In this document: piece by piece, positions 11,298 to 13,849 of the stretch
Numbering within the stretch: the first letter of the stretch is position 1
Layout of the letters: every line of letters starts with the position of its first letter
NCBI GenBank assembly: GCA_964016885.1
Contig: CAXHJY010001099.1
Span: 1 to 36,243 of the forward strand
DNA from: Eledone cirrhosa
Taxonomy: Eukaryota
Direction of reading: 5' to 3'
DNA: 36,243 bases
Notes under the pieces: model-generated
Seen by the model: only the letters and a program-made list of their open reading frames with translations
Database searches by the model: none
Told to the model about the DNA's origin: nothing
Translations under genes and position numbers: made by a program

Positions 11298-11369
11298 ATA
11301 TATTTTATTATATATATTTCGGAGGTACTGTGCTGTTTTTTCAGTACGTCCTCATCAGATAAAATACAT
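11298..11369 (-). ncRNA. Type I hammerhead ribozyme (family E, copy 1)
   Basis: Minus strand: atgtattttat CTGATGA ggac gtactg [11 nt] cagtac ctcc GAAA tatata TA ataaaatatat. 11-bp stem I (one G-U), intact core, AUA triplet, predicted cut between 11309 and 11308. Confidence 0.85.
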
Positions 11370-11420
11370 AAATTGATGTATGACATACCTCAACTGTGCT
11401 GATGGTTCAATTCCAGTATT

Positions 11421-11454
<34 letters not shown>

Positions 11455-11458
<4 letters not shown>

Positions 11459-11639
11459 AAAGGTAAACAGAAATAACAACACAATCGGTACAGTATAAGG
11501 AAGGGATATATTAGGTTAACGCTTGATATAGCAGGAAGAGAGTCTTAACGTTTCGGACGCTAGTCCTTCATCAGAAGAAAGAATGAGAAATAAGATAGAT
11601 TGAAGGGACGGGCGGGGTGGAATTGGAAAACATGTCTTT
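11455..11639 (-). mobile_element. Short hammerhead-bearing element, family A copy 1 (Penelope-like pLTR type)
   Basis: Homologous to 12209-12440 (inverted) and 13187-13520. Its 3' end abuts (TA)n. Confidence 0.75.
11543..11578 (-). ncRNA. Minimal type I hammerhead motif (family A)
   Basis: Minus strand: tctt CTGATGA a ggac tagc gtcc GAAA cg TT aaga. Palindromic ACGT stem III and an extra A after the core. Confidence 0.65.
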
Positions 11640-11827
11640 CCGCCGCTATGAAGGAATTTAACCATGTACATGACATCCCAAATCATTGACCACCCCCCGT
11701 GACAGACAAGAAAAACAACACATTTTTAGGATTGTTTGATTTGATATTTCTGCTTTTTTTTTTTTTTGTTTTGACTGCATGCCCATATATGGACTGTACT
11801 TTTTGATAAGTTCAGTTAGATTTCCGC

Positions 11828-11987
11828 CGTCCTAATACTGCTGGCTTCGTTCGGATCTAGCTGTCGAAACGGCCGGAGCTCAGCCGTCGGGGTCCTGACT
11901 CTTTTCCTATTACAGACTCTACTACCCTAAGATTCGACTACTCTGGTGCGGTATGGCCCGCCTGGTTTCTTACCGCACTTTCTTTGT
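11828..11987 (+). mobile_element. Family B1 element with a decayed hammerhead and 3' tail
   Basis: Degenerate 5' core and stem II, then gtc GAAA cggc..gccg TC ggggtc, and a tail with the hairpin gtgcggta...taccgcac before (TA)n. Confidence 0.65.
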
Positions 11988-11996
11988 TATATATAT

Positions 11997-12187
11997 ATAG
12001 GAACCAGTAAGACCCCGACGGCTGAGCTCAAGCCGTTTCAACGGCTAATTCTCAGAATTAGCCGTCGAAACGGCTTGAGCTCAGCCGTCGGGGTCTTACT
12101 GGTTCCTATTACCCACTCTACTACCCTAAGTATTGAGTACTTTGGTGCGTTATGGTCCACCTGGTTCCTTACCACATTTCCTTCGTT
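11997..12187 (+). mobile_element. Family B element: 56-bp-arm palindrome with a hammerhead 3' half plus tail
   Basis: Arms 11997-12052 and 12054-12109 with one mismatch. GAAA at 12067, stem III cggct/agccg, GUC ending at 12089. Flanked by (TA)n. Confidence 0.8.
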
Positions 12188-12208
12188 ATATATATATATA
12201 TATATTTG

Positions 12209-12438
12209 CAAGAGATGTCAATATGAATGGACCTGTTATTTTTATCTAAAGACATTTTTTCCAATTCCAACCAATTCCACCCCGCCCGTCCCCTCAATCT
12301 ATCTTATTTCTCATTCTTTCTTCTGATGAAGGGCTAGCGTATGAAACGTTAAAACCCTCTTCCTGCTATATCAAGCGTTAACCTAATATATCCCTTCCAT
12401 ATACTGTACTGATTGTGTTGTTATCTCTGTTTACCTTT

Positions 12439-12440
<2 letters not shown>
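12209..12440 (+). mobile_element. Family A copy 2 (hammerhead core 12323-12350, stem II disrupted)
   Basis: ctgatgaagggctagcgtatgaaacgtt. Reverse-complement match to copies 1 and 3. Ends at (CA)n. Confidence 0.75.
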
Positions 12441-12491
<51 letters not shown>

Positions 12492-12926
12492 TAAGGCTAA
12501 AAAGTGAGTCTTATTGCACTGGAATTTCGTTACTATGTTTCTAAGGAAACATCCACCATATAATATGATTTTCAAATAATTAAAAAAATACTAAAGGACT
12601 TAGAGGCATTTAGTAATAATACAACTAATTTTCCCATTATACATACACTTCGTAAAATAATTAACAAGTCTTCCATTCCAGCGTTTCTATAGCAATCTGT
12701 TGTGTTAATGACGCTTTAACTCAGTTTTATTTCTAGCCATTTTCTTGAAAATTCGGCGCCATTTTTATTTGTTAGAAGAAAAACGGTAAACTACAAATTC
12801 CATTTTCAACACTGTTAATTTTATTAAAGAACATTTGAAATTCTTCAATTAGAGATTATCAACTCAGCAAAAATGCTCGACAGCGTTAGATGACAATTAT
12901 ATTAATGTGAATTTCCATACCAAATG

Positions 12927-12981
<55 letters not shown>

Positions 12982-13051
12982 AGGAGAGGAAATAATAAGC
13001 ATTTTAAAAAATTGAACAAAAACTAAACATCTAAAGGTATACATATATATG

Positions 13052-13090
<39 letters not shown>

Positions 13091-13130
13091 ACATAACAAA
13101 TCGTCCATTTTACCTTTTTATTATTATTAT

Positions 13131-13171
<41 letters not shown>

Positions 13172-13186
13172 CTGTGTGTGTGTGTG

Positions 13187-13520
13187 TAAAAGGTAACCAG
13201 AAATAACAACACAATCGGTACAGTATATGGAAGGGATATATTAGGTTAATACTTGATATAGCAGGAAGAGGGTCTTAACGTTTCGGACACTAGTCCTTCA
13301 TCAGAAGAAAGAATGAGAAATTAGAAAATTTGGAGGGACGGGCGGCGTGGAATTGGGAAAAATGTCTTTAGATAAAAATAACAGGTCCGTTCATGTTGAC
13401 ATCTCTTGGCAGAACCACGCGCTTGAGGCAGGTTTCTTCTCTGAAGACCTTCTGCTGTCCAGCTTTCCTGAGAGTTTCTTACCACAGTCTATATTTTCCT
13501 TGGTGTACACTTGCTTATAG
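13187..13520 (-). mobile_element. Family A copy 3, the longest (minimal hammerhead 13273-13308)
   Basis: Minus strand tctt CTGATGA a ggac tagt gtcc GAAA cgtt aaga, with an extra ~110-bp coding-like 5' extension. Confidence 0.75.
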
Positions 13521-13522
13521 TG

Positions 13523-13561
<39 letters not shown>

Positions 13562-13598
13562 GTATATATATATATATATATACATACAGTGTATATAT

Positions 13599-13651
13599 GA
13601 AAAGATTCAGGACCCCGACGGCTGACCTCCGGCCGTTTCGACAGCTAGATC

Positions 13652-13652
<1 letters not shown>
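13599..13652 (-). mobile_element. Solo family B1 arm (hammerhead 3' half)
   Basis: Reverse complement of 11853-11906 (ggatctagctgtcgaaacggccggag.tcagccgtcggggtcctga.tcttttc). Confidence 0.75.
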
Positions 13653-13719
<67 letters not shown>

Positions 13720-13787
13720 AGAGACACAGACACACACACACACAATTGATATTAAATAAATGGAAAGTATATTTATAAAACCATATT

Positions 13788-13849
13788 TATTCTATTATAT
13801 ATATTTCAAGGGTACCAAAAATTTTGGTACGCTATCATCAGATAAAATA
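13788..13849 (-). ncRNA. Type I hammerhead ribozyme (family E, copy 2)
   Basis: Minus strand: tattttat CTGATGA tagc gtaccaaa att tttggtac cctt GAAA tatata TA atagaata. 8-bp stem I (one U-G) and intact core. Confidence 0.8.

Follow-up and report, generated by a model that had tools for sequence, protein, structure and literature searches.

The window analysed here, a 36,243-nucleotide stretch of Eledone cirrhosa DNA, contains two motifs that resemble hammerhead ribozymes. This raises the question of what carried them to the locus, whether their structure was selected in the lineages from which they came, and whether such motifs act as dimers through a self-complementary stem III. An initial annotation, made from the letters alone, had proposed both selection on RNA structure and dimeric folding.

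Both motifs are of type I and lie on the minus strand, with exact limits at 11301-11366 (copy 1) and 13788-13849 (copy 2). Read along this strand, copy 1 consists of the 5' strand of stem I (11366-11359), the core CUGAUGA (11358-11352), stem-loop II (11351-11321), GAA (11320-11318), the stem III palindrome (11317-11310), A17 (11309) and the 3' strand of stem I (11308-11301). The corresponding segments of copy 2 are found at 13849-13842, 13841-13835, 13834-13808 (with a U.U first pair), 13807-13805, 13804-13797, 13796 and 13795-13788. In both copies stem I has 8 bp, stem II is built of three pairs, a C.C mismatch and six further pairs, and all three helices are present with the end of stem I open, as expected for type I. 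Both copies also agree with the type I consensus used for matching (PMC3088659), namely C3 U4 G5 A6 N7 G8 A9 ... G12 A13 A14 A15.1, U16.1 and H17. By hammerhead numbering, cleavage is predicted after A17, at 11308..11309 in copy 1 and 13795..13796 in copy 2 (both minus strand), in agreement with the positions first put forward. Likewise, the exact blocks reported as shared, TATTTTAT-CTGATGA and GAAA-TATATA-TA, occur in both copies on the minus strand, the C.C mismatch said to be retained is found at stem II position 4 of each, the stem I change described as tolerated is a U-A (copy 1) or U.G (copy 2) at pair 4, and the two share the 8-nt palindrome AUAUAUAU as stem III. The claim that stem II differs between the copies while staying paired holds in part: positions 2, 3, 9 and 10 have changed on both sides with Watson-Crick pairing kept, but at the first pair (10.1-11.1), which had been taken as compensatory, copy 1 has G-C where copy 2 has U.U.

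When the bare motif is folded by computation, neither copy adopts the hammerhead at minimum energy, which counts against the explanation that we favour below, and with flanks included the folding z-scores of the two copies are only -2.2 and -1.9. The failure of the bare motifs to fold as a hammerhead does fit the low activity and protein assistance that have been published. Rfam, which is uninformative for this hammerhead variant, gave no match at the gathering threshold in the whole window and 45 hits at E<=10 in the interval 11000-14200, none of them to a hammerhead family. No recognisable tertiary contact between stems I and II was found in the motif; the invariant C.C mismatch is a candidate for such a contact. 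A distal extension of stem I was rejected as not general across subfamilies: in most of these, that of copy 2 included, duplex energies beat those of shuffles by 2.5-5.6 kcal/mol, but they did not in the copy 1 subfamily (-8.0 vs -7.0 and -7.0 vs -7.2).

Each motif sits in a 5'-truncated pLTR fragment on the minus strand, with approximate ends. The fragment carrying copy 1 (11165..11423) has a long ('tailed') 3' end and is flanked by (TA)n tracts, and that carrying copy 2 (13744..13921) belongs to a second subfamily, the U.U clade, has a short 3' end and is flanked by (CA)n. The copy 1 fragment shows 95-98% identity across ~241 nt with the 40 genomic copies that scored best and 94.7% identity with the 5' pLTR of L061, the full-length element described below. 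The long-ended copy 1 and the short-ended copy 2, on the other hand, are only 74% alike over 77 nt, and the 2.4 kb separating them is unrelated repeat DNA. Because they are separate insertions of different subfamilies, the two are unlikely to be each other's dimer partners, and both are probably inert passengers. Judged by their sequence, the window motifs are leftover terminal-repeat pieces of a Hydra-clade Penelope-like retrotransposon.

Several other repeats share the window. A second, minimal hammerhead-like family with a 4-bp stem II and an ACGU palindrome has three copies, of which two form an inverted pair, at 11551-11574 (minus), 12323-12346 (plus) and 13281-13304 (minus), within units at 11456-11639, 12209-12440 and 13186-13408; it probably represents a terminal repeat from a different Penelope-like family. 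A further repeat family forms long hairpins amid (TA)n tracts (11853-12186, 13590-13652 and 16113-16294), and a near-perfect 118-nt palindrome at 14560-14682 carries CTGATGA...GAAA on each arm. Tandem satellites are found at 5656-8287 (111 bp) and 10202-10795 (74 bp). By eye, ~10878-10990 resembles the tRNA-like head of a SINE; ARAGORN found no tRNA within the window.

The full-length element was reached by walking upstream from one genomic copy. L061 has hammerheads in its 5' and 3' pLTRs, 3,810 nt apart, with an inverted 5'-truncated copy in front, and its DNA thus contains the tandem arrangement of hammerheads that a dimer needs. The unit is 3.8 kb long; its ORF, which is frameshifted, starts ~210 nt past the 5' cut site, and ~1.2 kb separates the end of the ORF from the 3' hammerhead. 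Its reverse transcriptase piece resembles RVT_1 with an E-value of 8.4e-6, which is below the Pfam curated cut-off. A search of the genome with this piece gave 151 matches among the 150 scored of 28,983 candidates, one of them with a 748-aa open frame (L076), for which Pfam returned no match. L061, L076 and a third locus, L073, contain DKT, YRDD, a CxCx5C-type linker, GIY-YIG and CxxC-E-N-CxH, in the order reverse transcriptase and then C-terminal GIY-YIG. The N-terminal piece of L061 has RLRW (RLRWC at the RWK site), and in L076 F replaces the last linker cysteine. Protein searches returned 43 homologues at 28-39% identity, almost all of them unnamed, with one informative name, from Argonauta hians, and no solved structure among the relatives. 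Section 11 of PMC8557442 defines the Hydra clade by DKT, an RWK-like motif, YRDD, a CxCx5C linker, GIY-YIG, and CxxC and CxH around E and N, and the carrier is by these motifs a Hydra-clade Penelope-like element. Assignment to Neptune or Nematis was dropped, since these need a CX2-5CxxC linker where the present elements have CxCx5C, and the reverse transcriptase motifs also disagree. L061 itself is a mosaic: a 2-nt deletion common to both pLTRs is absent from the inverted arm, while a stem II change common to the 5' pLTR and the inverted arm is absent from the 3' pLTR. Gene conversion or template switching may have produced this pattern.

The family is very abundant. Its exact pattern, with UA at the centre of stem III, has 13,855 matches in the 3.0-Gb genome against 0 for a reversed control, and the matches are thus not due to chance. 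Patterns for a UG centre and for a changed N7 add 15,005 and 5,493 matches, respectively, giving 34,353 in total, a lower bound because each fixed letter of a pattern must match; the genome therefore contains more than 34,000 pLTR fragments of this family. Copies occur singly or in inverted pairs and not as tandem arrays of short hammerhead monomers, by which a non-LTR retrozyme is ruled out.

Abundance on this scale makes it possible to ask which parts of the motif the spreading lineages have kept. In the core, the comparison covers N7, the sole free position, and its neighbour A6, which is essential. A base other than U is found at N7 in 5,493 copies; the first 100 listed among these are mostly members of near-identical young subfamilies with C7 or A7. 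A6, on the other hand, is changed in 244 copies that are scattered across every subfamily, as mutations acquired after insertion would be. A free N7 beside a fixed A6 is the pattern of a catalytic core and, as far as sequence can tell, argues that the core was conserved in spreading lineages. The homogeneous and probably young subfamily with C7 or A7, which has a 12-bp stem II and partly an A.C first pair, is the best place to seek active full-length copies.

In stem II, 100 consecutive copies show at the first pair A-U in 43, G.U in 36, U.U in 13 and G-C in 6 (85 of 100 paired). Pair 2 is A-U in 75, G.U in 10 and G-C in 8, pair 3 is G-C in 76, A-U in 12 and A.C in 6, and pair 6 is U-A in 69, C-G in 23 and U.G in 3, while position 4 is C.C in 91. 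Placing one more nucleotide after A9 gives another register, which was rejected as it breaks the second pair in the lineage of copy 1. Changes were mapped to a tree built from 268 copies at 210 loci, a change being counted as shared if it falls on a branch leading to at least 4 loci; the tree is limited by short sequences, fixed-pattern sampling and a total of 18 shared events. Pairing is kept by 15 of the 18 shared stem II changes and by only 44 of the 118 private ones (Fisher p=5e-4). Three shared changes do break a pair: one marks the U.U clade (11 loci, copy 2 among them), one is a single step on a path of two, and one shifts a bulge. The C.C mismatch shows 0 shared changes. In stem I there are 4 shared changes, all between U-A and U.G; a two-sided change could not appear there because the search pattern fixed the 5' strand. 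In 12 hand-picked copies, 95.6% of cells are paired and 8 pairs have changed on both sides, relative to a shuffle control that ignores relatedness.

Taken with the N7 and A6 counts (5,493 vs 244), the excess of pairing among shared changes supports selection on RNA structure in the source lineages, as the annotation had suggested from the two copies. The covariation might instead reflect the inherited history of subfamilies alone, with no selection. Few independent events, a sampling scheme in which the core and stem I's 5' strand were kept constant, and the neglect of relatedness in the shuffle control all lend themselves to such a reading, yet on one and the same tree pair breaks make up 74 of 118 private changes and 3 of 18 shared ones. 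Together with the stem III counts below, this largely refutes it already, and we hold it to be highly improbable.

The scarcity of the canonical G-C first pair (6 of 100, with A.C in one young subfamily) counts against the explanation favoured below. It would suit a structure kept for binding protein or positioning the reverse transcriptase, with catalysis vestigial, as would the invariance of C.C, which a protein contact would also produce. A free N7 next to a fixed A6 is nevertheless what catalysis predicts, and U10.1.U11.1 is a known natural variant that is cleaved more than other mispairs (PMC3088659); U and U flanking stem II are, moreover, frequent among the Hydra hammerheads described in PMC8557442. 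We regard such a purely structural role as decidedly unlikely, together with its corollary that the UG centre of stem III arose by A-to-I editing of element RNA, which is taken up with the counts that bear on it.

In a monomer, the palindrome's two central letters would have to make a 2-nt loop, which is impossible, whereas in a dimer they would pair. The centres counted, besides UA (13,855) and UG (15,005), are CA with 87 copies, UC or UU with 235, and those with both letters changed, 346 in number. Of the 100 listed among the 346 double variants, 71 have CG, as read from the list. CG is the founder state of one subfamily (65 of 82 copies, 8 of 90 rows having been set aside as another subfamily), in which TG (8) and CA (7) are consistent with later symmetric CpG decay. 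Parsimony places 7 shared centre changes on the tree, all among UA, UG and CG, the sole states sampled. The computed energy of the 8-mer duplex is -3.2 kcal/mol for UA, -2.2 for UG, -6.5 for CG and +2.6 for CA; it is favourable for the first three and unfavourable for the six other centres tested, and closing stem III in a monomer is computed to cost ~3 kcal/mol. Since UG and CA each derive from UA by a transition, the one mirroring the other, the 170-fold difference between them is not a matter of mutational symmetry, and 15,005 against 87 is likewise not what subfamily history alone would give. Editing would account for the many tolerated helix changes that are A>G; shared substitutions, however, show no strand bias (A>G 45 vs T>C 45), and the CG centre requires U>C, which editing does not give. 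In its founder states UA, UG and CG, stem III is short and self-complementary, as a dimer demands. That spreading lineages appear to have changed the centre only among self-pairing states argues for dimer pairing and lends support to the dimeric folding proposed at the outset.

Insertions of the family show the features of the Hydra type, that is (TA)n targets, a pLTR, an inverted 5'-truncated copy and an optional tail. An inverted hammerhead copy lies within 260 nt upstream in 30 of 100 consecutive copies, and the first microsatellite past the cut site is met at 40-69 nt in 52 of 101 copies and at 110-169 nt in 36. Exactly one arm is long-ended in 39 of 44 inverted pairs and both arms in 0 of 44, in a sample partly chosen for having a long end. 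These one-tailed pairs and two end classes match the two internal reverse transcription starts described for an element of the green anole (PMC11167929). Arms are further apart from each other than each is from its nearest other copy in 16 of the 44 pairs, compared after de-duplication had removed pairs with identical arms; the 16 belong to one broad subfamily, and most of their differences look private or are truncations. The idea that two RNAs templated the two arms of one inverted insertion is not supported. One locus, L194, is suggestive in that the stem II versions of its two arms each match another locus (L028 and L198), with private flank changes shared. Placement of the hammerhead inside a 5'UTR intron is not supported either. 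Of 268 copies, 145 have a donor-like GGTATGT upstream, but among 120 tailed copies only 66 match the acceptor-like ACTCCAG exactly, variants lacking AG occur in 9-10 copies each, and assembled contigs of five runs (contigs of unknown kind) showed no intron-like joint. A short interspersed repeat, also present at 5193-5549 of the window, has inserted at or near stem III or stem I in five loci (L019, L070, L169, L172 and L231).

Insertions that start at the cut site are rare. There are 71 matches with (TA)n directly upstream, of which about half of 30 inspected are true truncations, and 28 head-to-head junctions, compared with ~6,500 intact UA copies that have the same downstream letters (47/100 x 13,855). 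A cleaved 3' product is thereby rejected as the main insertion template, and the RNA that was copied therefore had an intact hammerhead, either uncut or re-ligated.

We consider it probable that the motifs derive from an abundant Hydra-clade element whose core and helices were conserved in spreading lineages, and that cutting is likely only as a dimer paired through stem III. A transcript through the pLTR-ORF-pLTR tandem would carry two hammerheads 3.8 kb apart, which would swap stem III strands to form an 8-bp helix and be cleaved after A17, the element's own protein probably assisting. The unit-length product, left with one hammerhead, would be stable and may be re-ligated into a circle of the kind proposed in PMC4209133. 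Reverse transcription would then begin internally, at two sites lying ~55 and ~150 nt beyond the cut site, and proceed through the intact hammerhead into (TA)n targets. Weighing against this explanation, hammerhead mutants of PAc, the anole element, did not affect insertion in vitro according to PMC11167929. Also, L061 has pLTRs that differ from each other at a few sites, whereas a circular template predicts identity at insertion.

The same difference between the pLTRs would fit an alternative in which the dimer-active hammerhead made no template at all, serving instead to destroy or decap surplus or read-through tandem transcripts or to tune translation, while uncut linear RNA is copied. Insertion ends that avoid the cut site fit this, as does the report in PMC11167929 that the predominant substrate is RNA left unprocessed, and an AUG ~210 nt past the 5' cut site would suit the tuning of translation. 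A re-ligated circle, however, also yields insertions with an intact hammerhead, and a purely destructive cut is hard to square with the strict retention of A6 in all amplified lineages seen; we think this alternative unlikely. More tentatively, the explanation favoured here could be extended to a point at which we are doubtful: dimer-gated self-cleavage would be required for Penelope-type transposition in vivo, the excised circular unit would be the true template, the UA-UG-CG series would represent covariation between ribozymes, and C.C would be an as yet undescribed contact, tertiary or with protein, that makes G10.1-C11.1 dispensable.

With many subfamilies and tens of thousands of copies, the family offers a counted test of what Penelope hammerheads are for, a function that PMC8557442 calls unclear, adding that they may simply parasitise elements. 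A free core position that changed while its essential neighbour did not, and a palindrome centre restricted to self-pairing states, argue for selected catalysis and dimer pairing. The genome moreover supplies natural variants for direct assay, both at the stem III centre (UA, UG, CG and CA) and at the first stem II pair (G-C, A-U, U.U and A.C), and illustrates that the Hydra clade can reach great abundance in a single genome. Both the dimer model and the presence of hammerheads in Hydra elements have been published before. The family itself was not found in the literature on Penelope-like elements, hammerheads, and octopus or cephalopod retrotransposons; Repbase and Dfam, which lay outside this search, may hold it. 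What appears to be new is the family, its abundance, and the counted evolutionary evidence for catalysis and an inter-ribozyme helix.

The closest known systems are the Hydra-clade elements described by Craig et al. (2021, PMC8557442), which share with the present family the (TA)n targets, a type I hammerhead on the sense strand close to the 3' end and the full set of protein motifs, from DKT, RWK-like and YRDD through the CxCx5C linker and GIY-YIG to CxxC and CxH around E and N. In many of their hammerheads stem II lies between U and U, and loop III has 1-3 nt, as seen here. The present unit differs in its length (3.8 kb, against generally less than 3 kb), its clear pLTRs, its stem II of 10 bp, in which C.C is fixed, and its more than 34,000 pLTR fragments. 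The octopus element Hydra-1_Obim (2,507 nt) has a different hammerhead, and the carrier is thus another family. The metazoan Penelope-like hammerheads of Cervera and de la Pena (2014, PMC4209133) are likewise of type I, with a long helix II and a tiny palindromic helix III, and occur as dispersed single copies from truncated elements and as inverted pairs 100-700 bp apart. Dimer cleavage and a circular template were proposed for them in that work, and Lunse et al., as summarised in PMC6765202, describe them as working as dimers. G10.1-C11.1, called highly conserved there (PMC4209133), occurs here in 6 of 100 copies; A9 joins 10.1 directly in the best register, with zero unpaired nucleotides, and the dimer helix comes with a natural UA-UG-CG series and a counted CA control. 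Non-LTR retrozymes (bioRxiv 10.64898/2026.07.22.740005; PMC7229834) also carry a type I hammerhead of Penelope origin and are described as tandem arrays of small monomers, in contrast to the dispersed truncated pLTRs of a coding element found here. Finally, the Poseidon element PAc of the green anole (PMC11167929) resembles the family in its two internal 3' ends, which give an optional tail, its AT-rich targets and the uncut hammerhead in its insertions. It belongs to another clade, its tail measures 30-40 nt against ~95 nt here, and its hammerhead overlaps the start codon, whereas in the present family the cut site lies ~210 nt upstream.
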